DNA of 48,929 bases from Bacillota bacterium (lineage in GTDB: Bacteria > Bacillota > Sulfobacillia > UBA8153), in the NCBI GenBank assembly GCA_007130145.1, contig SLSY01000086.1, positions 1 through 48,929 on the forward strand. The letters are read 5' to 3'. A program made the position numbers and the translations under genes. This document shows positions 2 through 45,567 of the stretch, piece after piece. Numbering within the stretch: the stretch's first letter is position 1; each line of letters starts with the position of its first letter. Below the pieces are notes generated by a model that ran no database searches, was not told the DNA's origin, and worked only from the letters and a program-made list of their open reading frames with translations.

Positions 2-1324
2 GGTGTTATACAGGATCTAAAACGCAGTTTTCCCGCCACCTATCAGCAGATGCTCTCCATCGTCTATTACTTGATTCTTGAAAACAGTCCGCTGTACCGA
101 TTCTCGAAATGGAGCCGGACACATAAACACCCTTATGGCAAAGACATCCCCTCGCAGCGAAGCAGCGAACTTCTTACCACAATTGATGAAGCAGCAAAGA
201 TGAAATTTTTCAGCTTGCAGGCCGAACGACGCCTGGAGACTGAGTTTTTGGCCTTTGACATCACCAGCATCTCCTCCTACTCTGAGCTCATTAAACAGGT
301 CAAATATGGCAAGAACAAGGAAGGGGACCGGCTTCCCCAGATTAATCTCGCGCTGCTCCTGGGAGAACAGTCGGGTCTGCCGGCCTATTACCGCAAGTTA
401 CCGGGCAATGTGTCTGATGTCAAAACCGTCACCAATCTTCTCAAGGACATCACCTTCCTGGACATGGACAAAGTCAAGTTGGTGATGGACCGCGGCTTCT
501 ACAGTGCCGAGAACATCAACGCTCTCTATAAGCACCGCTATAAATTCCTGATCGGTGCCAAGCTGTCACTTTCGCTGGTAAAGAAGAAGCTGGAGGAAAT
601 CAGGGGTTCGCTCAAAACCAGAAAGCACTATTACCCGGAAGCCGGTCTCTTCGCCCTTAGTTTTCTCGATTCCTGGCCTTATGAGGAGATGAAACCGAGA
701 AGCGGTGAAACGATCCGTGAAAGCCGAAGAATGTATTTCCATTTCTATTACAACGACCGCAAAGCAACAGACGACCGGTCGCGTTTCTATCATGAATTGG
801 ATGCCTGGGAGGAAGAACTCTCCAGCGGTCACCGCAAGCCTGAACACGAGAAGAAGTACAGCAAGTATTTCAAGGTGACCACGACGCCCATCCGGGGAGT
901 GAAGATTGAACCAAAACAGAGGGCCATTGACACCGCAGAGCAAAACCTTGGATACTTTGTACTGATGTCTAATGGTATCAGCAAACCGATGGAAGCTCTT
1001 CAAATCTACCGGACCAAGGATATGGTGGAAAAAGCCTTTGGCAATCTTAAAGAGCATCTGAATATGCGCAGAGAGTCTGTGGCTTCGGAAGAAGGTCTGG
1101 AAGGGAAGCTGTTCCTGCAATTCATTGGCTTGATTTACCTGTGTCATATCAAGAAGATCATGGATGAGAAGAAACTCTTTTCTAAGTACAGCCTGCAAGA
1201 ACTGTTAGACGAACTCGATATTATTGAACTCTATCAGCACCCCGGAAAGCGTGGATATATCGGAGAGATTACCGGAAAGCAACGGGCCATCTATGAAGCT
1301 ATGAAGGTGGCTGTCCCAACCTAG
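2..1324 (+). CDS. IS4/IS1634-like DDE transposase, 5' end cut by the window edge (mobile element remnant or copy)
   Basis: The reading frame stays open from nt 2 into ORF 50..1324. It has a DDE-type core (LVMDRGFYSAENINAL) and a Y-R-x3-E-x6-K style signature (YRTKDMVEKAFGNLK) typical of IS4-superfamily transposases. It is a lone + strand gene abutting a housekeeping block. Confidence 0.7.
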   Translation, partial: GVIQDLKRSFPATYQQMLSIVYYLILENSPLYRFSKWSRTHKHPYGKDIPSQRSSELLTTIDEAAKMKFFSLQAERRLETEFLAFDITSISSYSELIKQVKYGKNKEGDRLPQINLALLLGEQSGLPAYYRKLPGNVSDVKTVTNLLKDITFLDMDKVKLVMDRGFYSAENINALYKHRYKFLIGAKLSLSLVKKKLEEIRGSLKTRKHYYPEAGLFALSFLDSWPYEEMKPRSGETIRESRRMYFHFYYNDRKATDDRSRFYHELDAWEEELSSGHRKPEHEKKYSKYFKVTTTPIRGVKIEPKQRAIDTAEQNLGYFVLMSNGISKPMEALQIYRTKDMVEKAFGNLKEHLNMRRESVASEEGLEGKLFLQFIGLIYLCHIKKIMDEKKLFSKYSLQELLDELDIIELYQHPGKRGYIGEITGKQRAIYEAMKVAVPT

Positions 1325-36283: not shown

Positions 36284-38068
36284 TCAATCAGCGTCAGAAG
36301 CTACATCCTTAGCCTTGTCCTCCGCCTTATCCTCCGCCTTATCGGTAAAACGACCGCGTGCTGTATAGTGTGTGTGCAAGAGCTCGTGAGACTTGTGTCC
36401 TAACGGCTTCTCCAGATACTCCTCGTACAGCTCCTTTACGGCTGGATTGTCATGGGACTTGCGTAAGGCTAAGTCCTTATCGGCTTGGTAAATGCCACCG
36501 ATTCTCTGTTGGCGGGTCTCGGTGTTGGTGGGAATGGGTTGTCCGCCACCACCAATGCATCCACCGGGGCAACACATGATCTCGACGAAGTGCCAATCGG
36601 CCTCTCCGCTCTTGATGCGTTCCATGAGCTCGCGGGCATTGCTCAACCCATGGCTCACAGCGACCTTAACCGTTGTGCCGGCCACGTCCACTTCCGCTTC
36701 CTTGATACCCTGGAGACCGCGCACCGGTTCAAAGTCCAGACCCGGCAGTTCATCGCCGGTGAGAACCTCATAGGCCGTGCGCAGGGCAGCCTCCATCACA
36801 CCACCAGTAGCGCCGAAGATCACTGCAGCACCCGTGCTCATGCCCAGCGGTGCATCATAATCTTCCTCTTCCAAGGATCTGAAGTCGATGCCTGCCTCAG
36901 CTATCATACGACCCAGCTCGCGAGTGGTGAGCACATAGTCCACATCCTGGTAGCCACTGGAGTTCATCTCGGGGCGCTGGGCCTCGAACTTCTTGGCAGT
37001 ACAAGGCATGATGGACACAACCACAATGCTGGCCGGGTCAATGCCCGCCTTCTCTGCGTAGAAGGTCTTGGCTAACGCACCGAACATCTGCTGCGGCGAC
37101 TTACACGTGGACAGGTTGGGCAACAACTCCGGATAGAAGTGTTCAATGAACTTGATCCATCCCGGGCTGCAAGACGTGAACATGGGCAAGACTCCGCCAC
37201 TTTGGATCCGGTCGATCAGCTCGTGCCCTTCCTCCATGATGGTCAGGTCTGCCGTGAAATCAGTATCGAACACGCGATCAAATCCCAATGCGCGCAGAGC
37301 GGCTACGAGTTTGCCGGTGCTCACTTCACCCACATCCAGACCGAAGGCTTCTCCAATCGAGACACGAATGGCTGGAGCAGTCTGCACCACCACGTGTTTT
37401 TCTGGATCGGACAGCACAGCCCAAACATCGTCTACGTATTCCTTCTCCGTCAGGGCTCCTACCGGGCACACCAGTGTGCACTGACCGCACATGGTGCACG
37501 CTGCCTCCTGCAGCTTGTCCCCGAAGGCAGGACCCACCGTGGTTTCCATGCCACGTTCGTTCAGGCCAATGGCGGATACACCCTGCACATGTTCGCACAC
37601 AGCAATGCAGCGGCGACACAGGATGCACTTCTCCGGATCTCGCACGATGGACGGGGTAGACGAATCAACCGGTCTCTCTACACGCTCGCCTTCAAAACGA
37701 GACTCTCTAATGCCCATCTCCGCGGTCAGATCCTGCAGTTCGCAGTGCTGATTGCGCACACATGTAAGGCATTCAAACGGGTGATCCGATAAGATCAATT
37801 CCAGATTCAAGCGCCGCGCTTTACGCACCGGGGCACTATTGGTTGAGATCTCCATGCCTTCACCCACTGGAGTTACGCAAGCGGCCTGCAAGGTGCGGGC
37901 ACCCTTGACTTCAACCACGCAAATCCGACACGAACCGACCACATTGACGTCTTCCAGGTAACACAACGTCGGGATCTTGATCCCAGCCTGCTGCGCCGCC
38001 TCCAATATGGTGGTTCCACTTTCGACCTGTACCTTTTTCCTGTCTATGGTCAATGTAACCAAAGCCAC
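36284..38068 (-). CDS. [FeFe]-hydrogenase HydA-like large subunit (bifurcating HydABC / StnC-like) with a variant L1 motif
   Basis: N-terminal plant-type 2Fe-2S and His-ligated/2x[4Fe-4S] domains (CYLEDVNVVGSCRIC, HPFECLTC, CILCRRCIAVC, CTMCGQCTLVCP). H-domain motifs are L1 FTSCSPGW, L2 MPCTAKKFE and L3 EIMCCPGGCIGGGGQP. Confidence 0.92.
   Translation of the reverse strand: MALVTLTIDRKKVQVESGTTILEAAQQAGIKIPTLCYLEDVNVVGSCRICVVEVKGARTLQAACVTPVGEGMEISTNSAPVRKARRLNLELILSDHPFECLTCVRNQHCELQDLTAEMGIRESRFEGERVERPVDSSTPSIVRDPEKCILCRRCIAVCEHVQGVSAIGLNERGMETTVGPAFGDKLQEAACTMCGQCTLVCPVGALTEKEYVDDVWAVLSDPEKHVVVQTAPAIRVSIGEAFGLDVGEVSTGKLVAALRALGFDRVFDTDFTADLTIMEEGHELIDRIQSGGVLPMFTSCSPGWIKFIEHFYPELLPNLSTCKSPQQMFGALAKTFYAEKAGIDPASIVVVSIMPCTAKKFEAQRPEMNSSGYQDVDYVLTTRELGRMIAEAGIDFRSLEEEDYDAPLGMSTGAAVIFGATGGVMEAALRTAYEVLTGDELPGLDFEPVRGLQGIKEAEVDVAGTTVKVAVSHGLSNARELMERIKSGEADWHFVEIMCCPGGCIGGGGQPIPTNTETRQQRIGGIYQADKDLALRKSHDNPAVKELYEEYLEKPLGHKSHELLHTHYTARGRFTDKAEDKAEDKAKDVASDAD
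36313..36345. repeat. Tandem 12-nt repeat (about 2.7 copies) encoding the (K-A-E-D)n tail of the HydA-like protein
   Basis: CCTTGTCCTCCG / CCTTATCCTCCG / CCTTATCGG, read directly from the sequence. The protein tail is DKAEDKAEDKAKD. Confidence 0.7.
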
Positions 38069-38093: not shown

Positions 38094-41000
38094 CTACTCA
38101 GGCACGTCACAACGCAGGCAGCGAGCCGCTTCTTTCTTGGCCGCCTCCTCGTCATATCCGGTCTCCACTTCAGTGAAGGAACCCAAACGCTCCTCACAGC
38201 TGACACATATCGCGGGCATCTTCTCCCGCGGCATGACTTGCTCGGACACCTCGGCACGCAACACGCGTTCCACCGGCAGTTCCGGAACCACATCCCCGTG
38301 TCCGCCAAGGTACTTGTCAATGGAGCCGGCGGCCAGCTTACCAGCCTGTACGGCCTTAATCACCGTCGCTGGCCCTGTCACCAAATCGCCTCCGGCAAAT
38401 AGGCCGTCCACTCCGGTAACGCCGGCCTCGGTCGCCAGCACTGTGCCATTTCGCATGGTTTCCAGACCACACTCGGCCATAAGTTCTCCGGTGGGAACCT
38501 GGCCAATGGCGGTAATGACTACATCAGCTGGAATCTCGAACTCGGAGTCTTCCACCGGCAGGCTGCGACGCCGTCCGCTGCTGTCAAAGTCACCTGACCG
38601 CATGGTAATGCACTGTAAGGCCGCTACCTTACCATCCTGCCCCAGTGCCTTGACCGGGTTGACCATGGGCAGGATCTTGATGCCTTCATGAAGAGCTTCC
38701 TCGATTTCCAGACGCTCGGCCGGCATATCCTGCAAGCTGCGACGGTAAACAATGGTCACGCTCTCGGCACCCAAGCGTAGCGAAGAACGAGCGGCATCGA
38801 TAGCTACATTGCCACCGCCGACCACTACGACTCGCTTGCCTTGCACCTCACCCTGGCCGGAGATGTTCAACAGGCGCAAGAAAGCAGCACCGGGCTTAAT
38901 ACCCTCCAAATCCTCACCTTCAATACCCAAACTCTGATCGTTATGGGCACCAATGGCCAGGTAGATAGCATCAAAGCCTTGATCCTTCAAGTCTTGTAGC
39001 GTGAAGTCACGTCCCAAGGCTTGTCTGGTGCGGATCTCAACGCCAGCCTGGGTTATGGCCTGTATCTCTTTGTCCAGAACAGCTCTGGGCAAACGGTACT
39101 CAGGGATGCCCACCGTCAGCATACCACCAGCGACGGGCTGTGCTTCAAACACCGTGATATCATAGCCCTTGCATCCCAGATAGTATCCGGCACTCAAACC
39201 CGCTGGCCCCGCCCCTACAATGGCTACCTTCTTACCGTTATCCGGCAACCTGTCCACTTCGGGCCAGCAATCGTTCTCGATGACATAGTCCGAAGCAAAG
39301 CGCTTCAGGGCGCGGATGGCAACCGGTTCGTCGATCTGTTCACGCCGGCACCGCGCTTCGCAGGGATGGTCACATACCCGGCCACATACCACCACGAAGG
39401 GATTCTGACGGCGCACCGTCTTGTAGGCTTCCACGTACTCACCGGCCCTGACTTGATCGACGTAGATCGGCACGTCCACCTCGGCCGGACAGGTGTTTTG
39501 ACACGGCGAATCAAACAGAGAAGCGCACACAGACGCCGGACACTTGCGATCGCGGATGTGTGCTTCGTATTCGTCGCGGAAGAAATTGATGGTGCTAAGA
39601 ACAGGGTTGGGAGCCGTCTGCCCCAAGCCGCACAGCGCTGTGCTCTTGATTGATTCGCCCAGTTCCTGCAGCATCTCGATGTCCCCGTCTTGGCCTTCGC
39701 CCCGGGTGATGCGCTGGAGGATCTCCAGCATACGCTTGGTGCCGATACGACAAGGCGTACACTTGCCACAAGACTCATCCTGCACGAATTCCAGGAAGAA
39801 CTTGGCCAAGTCCACCATACAAGTATCTTCGTCCATAACGACGAGCCCACCAGAGCCCATGATGGTTCCCAACGACTGTAACGATTCATAGTCAATGGGT
39901 GTATTCAAGTGCTCCACCGGGATACATCCACCGGAAGGACCACCGGTTTGCGCGGCCTTGAACTTGCGATGGTTGGGAATGCCGCCACCGATATCATATA
40001 TGATGTCACCCAACGATGTTCCCATGGATACCTCGACCAGACCATTGTTGTTGATGGCCCCAGCCAGAGCGAACACCTTCGTACCCGGCGACTTCTCCGT
40101 ACCCATGGTAGTGAACCAGTCGGCACCTTCACGCAAGATGGGTGCGATATTGGCAAATGTCTCCACGTTGTTGAGAACCGTTGGCTTGTCCCACAAACCA
40201 GAATTGGCAGGAAACGGTGGTCGCGGACGCGGTTCGCCGCGCCGCCCCATAATGGATGTGAGAAGAGCCGTTTCTTCTCCACACACAAAGGCACCCGCAC
40301 CGAGCCGGATGTCAATGTCGAAGTCAAACCCGCTGCCAAAGATGTTCTTGCCCAAAAGGCCCTTTTCTCTCGCCTTTTCAATGGCCAGATACAGGCGCCT
40401 AACGGCAATGGGATACTCGGCGCGGATATAGATGTAACCTTGGTTGGCCCCAACGGCATAGCCAGCAATGGCCATACCTTCCAGGATGGAATGGGGGTCG
40501 CCCTCAAGGATACTGCGATCCATGAAAGCACCAGGATCACCTTCATCTGCGTTACACACCACGTACTTGGGTGAACCATCAGCTCGAGCGGTGAATTCCC
40601 ACTTCATACCCGTTGGGAATCCGCCTCCGCCCCGGCCTCGCAATCCTGACTTTCTGACCTCGGCCACCACATCTTCGGGCTTCATTTCAAGCAAGACCTT
40701 GCCGAGACCAAGATAGCCATCTTGCGCAATATACTCTTCCAGAGACTCAGGATCAATAAGTCCACAGTTGGCCAGCACGATACGCTCTTGCTTCTTGAAA
40801 AAGTCGATATCCTGAAAATCAGATACCGTCATCTCTGCATCAGGCGGATGATACAATAGCCGCTGGACCACACGTCCTTTTAGGAAGTGCTCAGACACAA
40901 GTTCGGGTACATCCTCCAAATGGACTTCACAGTACATGACGCCCTCAGGATACACCACCATGTTAGGACCAAAGCGACAAAAACCGAAGCATCCGGTTTC

Positions 41001-41177: not shown

Positions 41178-41552
41178 TCATTCTTCTCGTGACTCACTTA
41201 CGTTGAGCGCCCATTCGGATATGACATTGCCATTGGCCACGTGTTGTGCCACGATCTGCCGGGCTCGGCTGGGCGAAACTTCTCCATACGTCACCCGGGG
41301 CTGTCCAGGCATGAAGACATCTACCAGGGGCTCACGCGAGCAAATGCCCACGCATCCTGTCTGTGTCACGACGGCCTTGAGGCGGCGCTTGTTCAATTCA
41401 TCCAGGATAGATTCCAGTGCATCACGAGCGCCAGCAGCAATACCACAGGTACCCATACCCACGACGATGCGGGCCTCATCCTGTCCCTGACGGACCCGGA
41501 TATCTTCCTTCACTCTATCCTTGATCTCTCTGAGCTCTTCCAGAGACTTCAC
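41178..41552 (-). CDS. Thioredoxin-like [2Fe-2S] ferredoxin (HydD/HndB-like)
   Basis: 124 aa with VVGMGTCGIAAGA and QTGCVGICSREP (four Cys). GTG start in a TAGTG overlap with the upstream stop, preceded by GGAGGTG. Confidence 0.85.
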   Translation of the reverse strand: MKSLEELREIKDRVKEDIRVRQGQDEARIVVGMGTCGIAAGARDALESILDELNKRRLKAVVTQTGCVGICSREPLVDVFMPGQPRVTYGEVSPSRARQIVAQHVANGNVISEWALNVSESREE

Positions 41553-42604: not shown

Positions 42605-43366
42605 CTAGTTCCTCCCTTCTCTGACGCCTACTAAGGCCAGCCGGTGGCCATCATCACCCCGGCAAGCCTTACGAAATGATTCTAGATCCAGCCGCTGACA
42701 ATACACACCCGTCTTCTGTCGCCCCACCTCGCTTCTGTGATGCGCATCAGACGATGTTACCAAGGCGATCGACTCGCCAATGGCATGCATCCTCCGCAGC
42801 GCATCCGTATTTCTGCCACCGGACACCTCTAGAGCTGTGACCCCGAGGCCTTCCGGCACAAAACCCAGTACTCCTAGCAACCCGAAGCTCTCTCTCTCAA
42901 TGTGGGCCGGTATACTTACCCCCCCTAAGGCCCGGGTCATATCAACCACCTGCTCCAGTGAATAGCCACTGGCTGTGGATAGCATGTTGTCCTCTTCTCC
43001 GACCACCCGGTTCGTGCAGTCGTAAATCAGCTGCTCTCCTAACACACGCGCCATAGATCGCCGGCGGAGAAGAGTATCACCTATTTGCTGCGACATATCT
43101 TTTGCTTGCTCAAGGGACGAGAAGATGCAAAGGACATGGACTTCTTCACTGGTCTCCACCTCAAGGCCCGGCCAAACGATCAAGTCGAAGGGCTCTGCCT
43201 GGCACATCACCGCCTCGCAATTGAGAGCACTGTTATGGTCGGTTATGGCGATGGCATCCAATCCCACTTCCAGGGCTGCCGTCACCACACCGTGAGGATC
43301 CATATCAGCTCCAGCGCAAGGCGAGAGCGCAGTGTGCACATGGAGATCAACCAGGTGCCACTTCAT
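42605..43366 (-). CDS. PHP-domain metal-dependent phosphoesterase
   Basis: VDLHVHTALSPC, AITDHNS and SDAHH. The start at Met13 forms an ATGA overlap with the upstream stop (43363-43366). Confidence 0.85.
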   Translation of the reverse strand: MKWHLVDLHVHTALSPCAGADMDPHGVVTAALEVGLDAIAITDHNSALNCEAVMCQAEPFDLIVWPGLEVETSEEVHVLCIFSSLEQAKDMSQQIGDTLLRRRSMARVLGEQLIYDCTNRVVGEEDNMLSTASGYSLEQVVDMTRALGGVSIPAHIERESFGLLGVLGFVPEGLGVTALEVSGGRNTDALRRMHAIGESIALVTSSDAHHRSEVGRQKTGVYCQRLDLESFRKACRGDDGHRLALVGVREGRN

Positions 43367-43716
43367 TCTTTGTCCTTTAGGCATGCAAACAAGCGACCAC
43401 ACACCTCAAAACTGCGCGACGATGCACTGAACAAGGCCACCTGCTCTCGCCTGGCCGTCTCGAGCGTCTCGGGTTTAACTGGCCGATCTCCCGTGATCAC
43501 TATGCCAGCCATTCCCACCAGAACGGCCACAGCCACGATGTTCTGATGGCTTTGCATCGTAACCCACAAACTGCCTTCTTGAGCATGCGCCATCACGTCC
43601 GAGAGCAGGTCTCCCACATACCCTGCCTTTACCGGGCGCTCGGGATCATATGAGCCCTGAGGACACAATTCGAGTGCTTCCACAACTTCAACCAGCTTCA
43701 CCATCATCATCCTCAC
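43363..43716 (-). CDS. DRTGG-domain protein
   Basis: About 115 aa with GYVGDLLSDVMAHAQEGSLWVT and AGIVITGDRPVKPETLETARREQVALF. The start lies among clustered Met codons at 43704-43716 and overlaps the upstream gene end. Confidence 0.78.
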   Translation of the reverse strand: MRMMMVKLVEVVEALELCPQGSYDPERPVKAGYVGDLLSDVMAHAQEGSLWVTMQSHQNIVAVAVLVGMAGIVITGDRPVKPETLETARREQVALFSASSRSFEVCGRLFACLKDKE

Positions 43717-45019
43717 TCTGTTGAGTATGCGACTTCATCCCCATGGAGCGGGGCAGGTGCCGGGCCAAGTCAACTATTTCTTCAGCCATTCCGTGAACTC
43801 GTTCACGCAGCTTCAGCACACAATCCATCTCATCTGCGTAACCGCGTACAATATCCTCTGCCAAGGCTCGACAGCTGGGAGCGCCACAAGCTCCGCAATC
43901 CAAGCCGGGCAGTTGATCTTCCACCGCTTCCAGCTGGCGGAGTTTGTCAATGGCGCGAGATATATCATCGTCGAGTCTGAGCACGGGGCGCGCTTTTACC
44001 TCGCTCAGGTAGGTGAAGTAGTCACTCTTTAGACGTTGCTCTAACCCGGGGGTCGCCTCCTCGCCATGTGCCCCGCGTTCGGCAGCCAGATTACGCACTC
44101 GTACACGAGCGACAAAGGGATTTTCCACGGCCAAACACCCACCCACGCAACCCGTAACACAAGCCTGGGCCTCTATGAAGTCCAGTCCGGCCAGCTTGTC
44201 TCGCTCCACTTCTTCAAAGACTTTAATGCACTGGTGAATGCCATCCACGGCAAGAGAATCTCGCCCCATGATCGTGGTCTCACCGCCGGAGCGCCCCCAA
44301 CCCATTCCGTAACCCGAAGCCTTAGGAATGAGAGGAGCGCGGGCCGCATGCTCCATTTGCCGCAAACATTCGGCATAAATAGCAGACATGGAGAAGGCTC
44401 CATCAACCGCGCTCTTGTCACGACCCACCGGCTGCTTGATCGCCGTTACCTTGGCCGGACAAGGAGAAACGAAAAAGACTCCATGCTCGGGACCGAGAGT
44501 GTCCTTGGCAATCTTAGCTGCCATCTCCATGGGAGACTCTAGTTTGATCAAATGATCGAGAAGCGCGGGGAAACGCACCTGAATCAGGCGCACCACGGCC
44601 GGACAAGCAGAAGAAATCAAGGGACGGGGTGAGGAATGTTCCTTCAAGTAACGCCGCATCGCCATGGATACGGCATCGGCGGCCAGCGCCACTTCATACA
44701 CTTCGTCAAAACCGATCAACCGTAAAGCACTCAGTACCACTCCTGGATCAGGCGTAGGAAACTGTCCCATGAAAGCCGGCGCCGGTATGATCACTGACTT
44801 GGGATATGCCTTCACGAGGTCCAGCGAATCGGTGACGGCCAGCTTAGCATGGTTAGGGCAGACACGAATGCATTCCCCGCAATCAATGCACCGTTCTTCA
44901 AAGATCCAAGCTCGCCCGTCCCTCACCCGAATCGCTTCGGTAGGGCAGCGCTTAATGCAGTTGGTACACCCTTTACACTTTTCTGCATCTAAGGTGACTG
45001 AATGGTAGTAGTCGGCCAC
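43688..45019 (-). CDS. Sensory-type [FeFe]-hydrogenase homologue (HydS-like) lacking a PAS domain
   Basis: N-terminal 2x[4Fe-4S] (CKGCTNCIKRCP, CIDCGECIRVCP). H-domain variants are SSACP, SPCPAK and EAQACVTGCVGG. C-terminal CGACGAPSC-x16-C. I placed the start at GTG 45019, 6 nt after AGGAGG. The ORF is open to 45106. Confidence 0.85.
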   Translation of the reverse strand: MADYYHSVTLDAEKCKGCTNCIKRCPTEAIRVRDGRAWIFEERCIDCGECIRVCPNHAKLAVTDSLDLVKAYPKSVIIPAPAFMGQFPTPDPGVVLSALRLIGFDEVYEVALAADAVSMAMRRYLKEHSSPRPLISSACPAVVRLIQVRFPALLDHLIKLESPMEMAAKIAKDTLGPEHGVFFVSPCPAKVTAIKQPVGRDKSAVDGAFSMSAIYAECLRQMEHAARAPLIPKASGYGMGWGRSGGETTIMGRDSLAVDGIHQCIKVFEEVERDKLAGLDFIEAQACVTGCVGGCLAVENPFVARVRVRNLAAERGAHGEEATPGLEQRLKSDYFTYLSEVKARPVLRLDDDISRAIDKLRQLEAVEDQLPGLDCGACGAPSCRALAEDIVRGYADEMDCVLKLRERVHGMAEEIVDLARHLPRSMGMKSHTQQSEDDDGEAG

Positions 45020-45111
45020 AGCCGTCCTCCTGAATTGAACTAGTTTTGTCATGCATTGCATGGGTCCTGCCGCTGCCCGTATATCCGGGCCTCCGTCAGG
45101 GAGCAAACGTC

Positions 45112-45567
45112 TTACTCTCGACCTTTGCTGAAAAAAAGCAATCGCAAGGTTGTACCCTTGTCCACAACCGAATCAAGGTGCATTTGATCGACACAACGCT
45201 TAATGTTGGTCAGCCCCATGCCCGCCCCGAACCCCATTTCCCGCACGTGCGTCGGGGCCGTCGAGTATCCATCCTGCATCGCCAAATCAATATCTGGAAT
45301 GCCTGGCCCCTCATCCTCAACGCATATTTCTATGCGCTCCGGACCAATCTTCGCCACCAAGCATCCGCGGTGCGCGTGAATCACCACATTGATTTCGGCT
45401 TCATAGGTTGCGCTGGCTACACGTCTAATCATATCCGCCGGCATGCCCAGTTGCGTCATAGTGCGCTTGATTCCTGTCGCCGCTTCCCCGGCCGTTGTGA
45501 AATCCATTCCCTTGATTCTAAACTCCAGTACGATACGGGAATCATTGTTCGGTCGGGCGTCATTCAC
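45112..45567 (-). CDS. RsbW/SpoIIAB-like GHKL serine-protein-kinase (anti-sigma-factor-like)
   Basis: 151 aa with AGEAATGIK, N-box YEAEINVVIHA, G1 VEDEGPGIPD and G2 GFGAGMGLTNIKR. Confidence 0.8.
   Translation of the reverse strand: MNDARPNNDSRIVLEFRIKGMDFTTAGEAATGIKRTMTQLGMPADMIRRVASATYEAEINVVIHAHRGCLVAKIGPERIEICVEDEGPGIPDIDLAMQDGYSTAPTHVREMGFGAGMGLTNIKRCVDQMHLDSVVDKGTTLRLLFFSKGRE

Follow-up and report, generated by a model that had tools for sequence, protein, structure and literature searches.

Can an [FeFe] hydrogenase subunit that has serine where a cysteine normally holds its active-site cluster still work on H2, and with which redox partners would it do so when the protein encoded next to it carries a glutamate synthase-type (GltD) module? 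These questions are raised by hydA, the last gene of a minus-strand cluster that runs from 45567 down to 36284 in contig SLSY01000086.1 of a Bacillota bacterium (assembly GCA_007130145.1; Sulfobacillia, UBA8153), whose 48,929 nucleotides we refer to as the window. The gene before it encodes a fusion of the NADH-oxidizing subunit HydB, a NuoF homologue, with a GltD module (HydB::GltD). As judged by comparison with its relatives, the serine of HydA (Ser301) is a normal inherited character of its clade, and neither an error nor a sign that the H-cluster was lost. We hold it probable that HydA is an active group-A hydrogenase in which Ser301 occupies a normal cubane-ligand position, and that it serves as the H2 module of a HydABC-type complex coupling NAD(H) and NADP(H). 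The fusion beside hydA, rather than Ser301, is the less ordinary feature of the locus.

By the cut-offs of profile hidden Markov models, HydA belongs to the group-A [FeFe] hydrogenases. It scores 945 bits against NCBIfam NF040763 ("NADH-dependent [FeFe] hydrogenase, group A6"; cut-off 765) and 558 bits against TIGR02512 (cut-off 406), and PF02906 (Fe_hyd_lg_C) matches it with E=8e-106. Its Pfam domains (Fer2_4, NADH-G_4Fe-4S_3, two ferredoxin-type 4Fe-4S domains, Fe_hyd_lg_C and Fe_hyd_SSU) give a layout of an N-terminal [2Fe-2S] domain, a NuoG-type His-ligated [4Fe-4S] cluster, two ferredoxin-type [4Fe-4S] clusters, the H-domain and a fused small-subunit domain. The top matches in the PDB are the HydA subunits of two electron-bifurcating HydABC complexes, from Thermoanaerobacter kivui (8a6t_A, E=1e-212) and Acetobacterium woodii (7q4v_A, E=5e-212). 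At its C-terminus (36284-36340, minus strand) the protein has a low-complexity acidic/lysine tail, DKAEDKAEDKAKDVASDAD, which is lacking in the PDB relatives.

Read on the minus strand, the codons ttc acg tct tgc agc ccg gga tgg encode F-T-S-C-S-P-G-W, in the open reading frame context PMFTSCSPGW. When residues are counted along a phmmer alignment with CpI, the hydrogenase of Clostridium pasteurianum, the proton-relay cysteine CpI C299 pairs with Cys300 and the [4Fe-4S] ligand CpI C300 pairs with Ser301. Both the codons and the alignment thus bear out an earlier, sequence-only reading of this DNA, which had placed a serine codon (AGC) at the position of CpI Cys300 in motif L1. HydA departs here from the strict L1 consensus TSCCPxW with its two cysteines, and the form that it has, TSCSPGW, is a documented natural variant of the family. 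The other two H-cluster motifs are present in their consensus forms, L2 (MPCxxKxxE) as MPCTAKKFE and L3 (ExMxCxxGCxxG) as EIMCCPGGCIGG. The same reading had called both intact, and did not mention that L3, which runs EIMCCPGGC, contains an extra cysteine, Cys499, at the position of CpI A498. All five proton-pathway residues (CpI C299, E279, S319, E282 and R286) are kept in the CpI alignment, in motifs that include MEEGHELIDR and NLST.

How ordinary the serine is can be seen from its distribution. Among the best 120 HydA homologues in a collection of 5.8 billion proteins, which include sequences from Moorella, Desulfofundulus, Pelotomaculum and Zhaonella, TSCSPGW is found in 117, the nearest relative (75% identity) being one of them; one other has SSCSPGW and one TSCRPGW. 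This last sequence (P0068), a close homologue with arginine at the ligand position, comes from a single metagenome-assembled genome and may be an error. Across 80 genome loci from many phyla, 58 HydA motifs could be read, 53 of the form (T/S)SCSPxW and five of the form xxCCPxW. A broader sample, the 150 best representatives of 50%-identity clusters spanning diverse group-A enzymes, has serine in 25 of its 126 motif-bearing sequences (about 20%), and Kertess et al. (2017; PMC5855289), with reference to Winkler, Esselborn and Happe (2013), likewise put the share of analysed sequences with serine here at about 20%. On a neighbour-joining tree of 172 H-domains, Fitch parsimony places cysteine at the root and counts no fewer than 21 Cys/Ser changes, a figure that is rough and tied to this tree; evidently, both residues have been acceptable at the L1 site many times over the course of evolution.

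This distribution also bears on the suggestion of the sequence-only reading that AGC might be a single-base error, whether of sequencing or of assembly, or might have arisen from TGC by mutation very recently, the two codons differing in one base. The serine codons at this site in the 80 loci are AGC (13), AGT (10), TCG (10), TCC (9), TCT (6) and TCA (5), so that all six are in use, and a recent single-base event cannot explain a serine that different genomes encode in six different ways. Together with the conservation of the motif, down to the 75%-identical nearest relative, this led us to reject the suggestion, to which we attach next to no probability; and as the motif is conserved family-wide, chance is no issue for the L1 observation. 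A link between the serine and the fusion in particular was rejected as well. In the same loci, the L1 residue is serine in 28 cases and cysteine in one where the neighbour is a plain HydB, and serine in 25 and cysteine in four where the neighbour is the NuoF::GltD fusion. The serine is thus equally common beside plain HydB, and the HydAs beside fusions, four of which have TSCCP, do not uniformly carry that motif.

Serine in place of a cubane cysteine is already known from alignments, cryo-electron microscopy and Fourier-transform infrared spectroscopy. HydA1 of A. woodii (7q4v_A), which is 56% identical to the window HydA over 570 residues, has the identical L1, TSCSPGW, within TSCSPGWIKFIE. 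Katsyv et al. (2023; PMC10021017) report that Ser301 of this enzyme stands in for one of the cysteines that ligate cluster A1 (Cys299 in T. kivui) and is a ligand of the H-cluster cubane, that it does not appear to affect the infrared signature of the H-cluster, and that the enzyme is active. A Ser-ligated H-cluster, which the sequence-only reading had entertained as an unusual possibility, is therefore supported by A. woodii HydA1, although with about one sequence in five carrying the serine it is not unusual. For annotators this means that TSCSP is not to be read as a defect.

The neighbouring fusion departs further from what is known. In its N-terminal half, residues 13-100 form a thioredoxin-like [2Fe-2S] domain and residues 136-538 the NuoF core with FMN and NADH sites, and residues 549-1017 make up a module resembling GltD and NfnB. 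HydC and the HydB part match PF01257, PF01512 and PF10589, the features of an N3-type [4Fe-4S] cluster and of the FMN/NADH site are present (with the site motifs GRGGGGFPTG and CNADEGDPGAF intact), and the top PDB matches are HydB chains. The alignment with A. woodii HydB joins residues 13-552 of the fusion to residues 5-546 of 599 (E=7e-249) and stops there. From this point on, residues 550-1017 find their best matches in the GltD insert of NfnA-Bfu (9n5u_A), in 9bov_A and in StnC (8oh5_C), with E-values between 1e-107 and 1e-120, and match the NfnB subunit of NfnAB (4ylf_B, 5jca_L) more weakly. The module is predicted to carry two [4Fe-4S] clusters, FAD and an NADPH site, its GxGxxA...VYRRS signature indicating NADP(H) if the reading of the Stn paper is followed. 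The first of its clusters combines the PCQNTCP that opens the module with the RCLRC at the very C-terminus. The N-terminal 40 residues of Thermotoga maritima NfnB (...EAQRCLQC) align with the end of the fusion (...EAARCLRCDVPE, followed by the stop codon), and the PCQNTCP at residue 551 is matched by NfnB from its residue 46 on. The GltD module is thus circularly permuted with respect to NfnB, and this permutation is common to StnC and NfnA-Bfu.

The ferredoxin-type motif CxxCxxCxxxC of clusters B3 and B4 is absent from the window fusion and from all 44 full-length fusion reading frames in the 80 loci, whereas 27 of 29 intact plain HydBs have two copies of it at their C-terminus. This indicates that the B3/B4 branch, which is the ferredoxin branch in the published HydABC mechanism (PMC10021017), was replaced by the GltD module and not supplemented by it. 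The remaining cofactor sites are well kept over 163 fusions. In the GltD module, C552, C556, C595, C599 and C603 occur in all of them, and C591, C1013 and C1016 in 162. The four cysteines of the NuoF cluster (Cys463, 466, 469 and 509) are invariant or nearly so, those of a putative B2 site near FMN (Cys411, 446, 539 and 544) are invariant, and the N-terminal four-Cys domain is retained with Cys19, 24, 56 and 60 conserved. A CVSC pair in the tail of the fusion (Cys984/987) was considered as an extra metal site and rejected, since it is not conserved. As far as can be read from its subunits, the complex is HydABC-like, and yet it lacks the B3/B4 clusters, by which the bifurcating Bfu core is in part defined.

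Comparison with known systems brings out this mixed character. HydABC of A. woodii (PDB 7q4v, 7q4w, 8a5e) shares with the window system HydC, the FMN/NADH core of HydB and a HydA with TSCSPGW, but there HydB has two ferredoxin-type [4Fe-4S] clusters at its end and lacks a GltD module. HydA of Moorella thermoacetica (P0056) is 71% identical to that of the window, has both TSCSPGW and MCCPGGC, and is encoded in a HydC-HydB-HydA operon whose HydB is a plain protein of 619 residues with a C-terminal ferredoxin domain in place of the fusion. The M. thermoacetica HydABC is one that Wang and co-workers are said to have published in 2013 as a reversible bifurcating hydrogenase (cited in PMC6288185), and we infer that P0056 is the HydA of the purified enzyme. 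NfnAB (PDB 4ylf, 5jca) has the same NfnB/GltD fold with two [4Fe-4S] clusters, FAD and an NADPH site, and the four-Cys pattern of the second cluster in T. maritima NfnB (VCGRVC...C...C) is common to the fusion; however, the NfnA partner is absent from the window system, and the RCLxC that is N-terminal in NfnB lies at the C-terminus of the fusion. StnABC and NfnABC-Bfu (PDB 8oh5, 9n5u, 9bov) share the permuted GltD module and the NuoE/NuoF-type core, but in these complexes GltD sits in a NuoG-like subunit without an H-domain, NuoF keeps its C-terminal clusters, and H2 is not used. StnC, a NuoG/FdhF-like protein of 1172 residues, contains a GltD insert but no H-domain, and the NuoF homologue StnB is a plain one (PMC10482914, PMC7483475). 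The picture in the sequence-only reading of a StnC that pairs with a NuoF-GltD fusion was therefore mistaken, and the window differs from the Stn-type architecture in both respects, with GltD fused to NuoF and a NuoG-like subunit that has a full H-domain.

In the HydDB classification, the "glutamate synthase-linked" group A2 likewise has a GltD-type NADPH module encoded beside a group-A hydrogenase. The rule for A2, however, asks for a GltD neighbour "but not NuoF"; the neighbour of the window HydA has both domains, so that A2 does not apply, and with NuoF and GltD in one protein the rule assigns A3. In the fusion, the ferredoxin domain by which bifurcating HydABC enzymes are defined is gone; fusions are widespread, and current schemes place them under A3 or A2 without comment. 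For many anaerobes, among them Moorella, Pelotomaculum, Atribacteria, Thermoleophilia and Dehalococcoidia, H2 metabolism may consequently be predicted with the wrong redox partners. We found no description of a HydB::GltD hydrogenase in the open-access literature, subscription journals lying outside the search.

The best 120 homologues of the fusion are all 945-1034 residues long and contain both domain sets. Cultivated carriers include Moorella sp. Hama-1, Thermanaeromonas toyohensis, Zhaonella formicivorans, Anoxybacter fermentans and Desulfitibacter alkalitolerans. In species-representative genomes, where the best match to the window fusion has 65% identity, full-length fusions were found in Bacillota, Atribacteria, Armatimonadota, Thermoleophilia, Spirochaetes, Aminicenantes, Chloroflexota, Desulfobacterota, Verrucomicrobiota, Acidobacteria and others. 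HydC-HydB::GltD-HydA is the commonest arrangement, often accompanied by the same block of genes for a HydS-like protein, a PHP-domain protein and a HATPase as in the window. Five loci (L003, L005, L006, L018 and L029) have a second HydC'-HydB' pair between the fusion and the catalytic subunit, in which HydB' has about 550-570 residues and no B3/B4 clusters; this suggests complexes that would contain two NuoEF-type modules. At other loci (L036, L037, L039, L040 and L043, and also L018, L020, L044 and L050), the fusion is followed by a NuoG/FdhA-like protein and not by a hydrogenase. Such partners match just the N-terminal 210 or so residues of HydA, have no H-domain, and reach 900-1030 residues, the size of a formate dehydrogenase, in L039, L040 and L043. 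With NuoG-like proteins in the place of HydA, the fusion module appears to serve non-hydrogenase partners too. One protein of the representative library found among the HydA matches, P0246, has 4122 residues with seven HydA-matching stretches (2315 bits), and is either a giant multi-hydrogenase protein or an artefact of assembly or gene calling.

The two types of HydB can be compared most directly in Moorella, where the loci of M. thermoacetica (L081) and Moorella sp. Hama-1 (L082) are syntenic, with ThiC/DBI_PRT upstream and a GDSL lipase downstream. M. thermoacetica has HydC, HydB (619 residues, with Fer4) and HydA, and directly upstream of them the HydS/PHP/HATPase block is lacking; in Hama-1 the HydS/PHP block comes first, and then HydC, the HATPase, a small protein, HydB::GltD (1011 residues) and HydA. 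The HydAs of the two share 95% of their residues, TSCSPGW and MCCPGGC included. Their HydBs align at 75% identity overall, with a far closer match over the FMN/NADH core, and the breakpoint lies just past RDHxCPAxVC, from where one protein continues into the ferredoxin motif CTGCGACSRVCP and the other into PCQNTCP. A further difference concerns the HydD-like domain: the HydB of M. thermoacetica carries it at its N-terminus, and in the window it has a gene of its own, for 124 residues.

How might such a complex work? In the scheme that we propose, H2 would be oxidized, or protons reduced, at a normal H-cluster whose cubane is held by three Cys and one Ser, the oxygen of Ser301 standing in for the thiolate of CpI Cys300 as in A. 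woodii HydA1. Cys300 would relay protons, and Cys356, Cys500, Cys504 and the Glu/Ser/Arg pathway would keep their usual roles. Electrons would run through the clusters of HydA to the FMN of HydB, with one route serving NAD(H); the second route, which normally leads from C1 over B3 and B4 to ferredoxin, would here enter the two GltD clusters and FAD and end at NADP(H). The net outcome would be a reversible coupling of H2/H+ to NAD(H) at FMN and to NADP(H) at FAD, in which NADP(H) takes the outlet of ferredoxin. Given that the C-terminal domain of HydB with its two [4Fe-4S] clusters is replaced by the GltD module, reversible coupling to both nucleotides seems the most likely function.

The redox potential of NADH lies near -280 mV and that of NADPH near -370 to -380 mV. 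By our own arithmetic, their mean of about -325 mV corresponds to roughly 100 Pa of H2, so a ferredoxin-free hydrogenase that uses NADH together with NADPH would be thermodynamically sensible at low H2. It is tempting to go further and to see in HydC-HydB::GltD-HydA a multi-phylum class of enzymes that split the electrons of H2 between NAD+ and NADP+, or confurcate NADH and NADPH to H2, without ferredoxin; we offer this as a tentative idea only. That the two nucleotide sites are obligately coupled, as bifurcation demands, is in our judgement similarly doubtful. If it were true, NAD/NADP splitting without ferredoxin would fit the low H2 pressure of syntrophic habitats on thermodynamic grounds, and the Moorella pair, with plain HydB against fusion beside nearly the same HydA, would be a ready natural comparison.

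Several points weigh against an active and doubly coupled HydA. In HydA1 of Chlamydomonas reinhardtii, the substitution C115S, at the same ligand position (C114 is the adjacent proton-relay Cys and C170 the L2 cysteine), abolishes activity altogether and removes most of the cubane (Kertess et al. 2017; PMC5855289). The L3 of A. woodii reads MAC against MCC in the window HydA, so that the ligand set of the closest precedent is not strictly identical. The absence of hydE/F/G from the window, already noted in the sequence-only reading, was confirmed, as no open reading frame of at least 90 residues there has a radical-SAM or HydF match. Finally, the NAD/NADP coupling is read purely from the order of the domains, and ferredoxin might dock elsewhere. 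The dead C115S and the lack of maturase genes in the window, together with the loss of one cubane Cys and the near kinship of the GltD module to that of Stn/NfnABC, would also suit a HydA without an H-cluster, a subunit that would serve solely as an iron-sulfur wire, as the inactive FdhF-like domain does in StnC, in an NADH/NADPH transhydrogenase independent of H2. The sequence-only reading had proposed such a StnC-like remnant. This does not hold up well, as StnC itself is without any H-domain, whereas the HydA family has kept L2, L3, the proton-relay Cys and the proton pathway throughout the phyla and the Ser-type HydA1 of A. woodii has a normal H-cluster; with these residues conserved and Ser-type enzymes active, loss of the H-cluster is very unlikely. 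It also sits badly with the near identity of the HydA beside the Hama-1 fusion to that of the M. thermoacetica HydC-HydB-HydA operon, and with the co-conservation of a putative H2 sensor upstream. The failure of the engineered serine and the success of the natural one imply that serine is tolerated solely in the right protein context, and what in that context permits Fe-O(Ser) ligation is the question that the contrast raises. We therefore keep to an active HydA with a Ser-ligated cubane, inferring its maturation and activity, like the NAD/NADP coupling, from sequence.

Two other readings leave the H-cluster in place. In enzymes with MCCPGGC, Cys499 could give the cubane its fourth thiolate and Ser301 would merely belong to the second sphere. 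The extra L3 cysteine does co-occur with serine, being present in 93 of the 119 nearest homologues (78%) and in three of 16 Ser-type representatives against one of 96 Cys-type ones, but this co-occurrence comes mostly from one clade. In many Ser-type enzymes the residue opposite CpI A498 is A, G, T or S, as in A. woodii with MAC, where Ser is the modelled ligand, and the position simply accepts small residues; moreover, in a beta-strand residue i-1 would be expected, by general geometry rather than from coordinates, to face away from the side of residue i. We give ligation by Cys499 a slim chance. The other reading concerns the nucleotides and is a possible one, with clearly less than an even chance. 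It describes a dual-specificity hydrogenase that does not bifurcate and at which NADH and NADPH exchange independently, in the manner of the NADH-dependent enzymes of S. wolfei and S. aciditrophicus, which are without the C-terminal clusters of HydB. B3/B4 are absent from the fusion, loss of the C-terminal clusters goes with non-bifurcating enzymes in published criteria (PMC7311640), and the name that NCBI gives to this HydA family is "NADH-dependent, group A6". On the other side, the N-terminal [2Fe-2S] domain of HydB, HydC and the invariant cysteines of the putative B2 site are retained, and these are features of the bifurcating core.

The positions of hydA, its motifs and the other genes of the cluster are collected in the table. 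The HydS-like protein has alanine in the place of the proton-relay Cys of L1 and has no PAS domain. Its gene, the PHP gene and the SpoIIAB-like gene are co-conserved in many fusion loci and probably form an H2-sensing regulatory unit.

Table. Genes of the hydA cluster and the motifs within them (window coordinates)
Feature	Position	Strand	Remarks
SpoIIAB-like anti-sigma/serine-kinase ATPase	45112..45567	minus	co-conserved with the HydS-like gene
HydS-like putative H2-sensing [FeFe] hydrogenase homologue	43688..45106	minus	L1 SSACP; C-terminal PF04060 FeS domain
PHP-domain protein	42605..43402	minus	part of the conserved upstream regulatory block
hydC, NuoE-type [2Fe-2S] subunit, 165 aa	42105..42602	minus	Pfam match
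HATPase_c-only protein, 183 aa	41552..42103	minus	conserved in these operons
HydD-like thioredoxin-like ferredoxin-fold protein, 124 aa, 3 Cys	41178..41552	minus	homologous to the N-terminal domain of M. thermoacetica HydB
hydB::gltD fusion, 1020 aa	38094..41156	minus	upstream neighbour of hydA
GltD module	38106..39512	minus	PCQNTCP 39486-39506; C-terminal RCLRC 38109-38123; predicted NADPH signature 38736-38819
hydA	36284..38068	minus	594-aa M3-type group-A [FeFe] hydrogenase; Pfam, NCBIfam and PDB matches
Motif L1, Ser form TSCSPGW, residues 298-304	37157..37177	minus	Cys300 is the proton-relay Cys
Ser301 codon AGC	37166..37168	minus	opposite CpI Cys300, cubane ligand of L1 (phmmer alignment)
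Motif L2 MPCTAKKFE	36983..37009	minus	equivalents of CpI Cys355 and Lys358
Motif L3 EIMCCPGGCIGGGGQP	36536..36583	minus	equivalents of CpI Cys499 and Cys503, plus extra Cys at CpI A498 position

The remainder of the window holds Bacillota housekeeping genes (fab genes, plsX, rnc, smc, ftsY, ffh, trmD, topA, codY and etfAB) and a DDE transposase. The transposase gene (50-1324, plus strand) lies at the edge of the window and adjoins codY, hslU and xerC.

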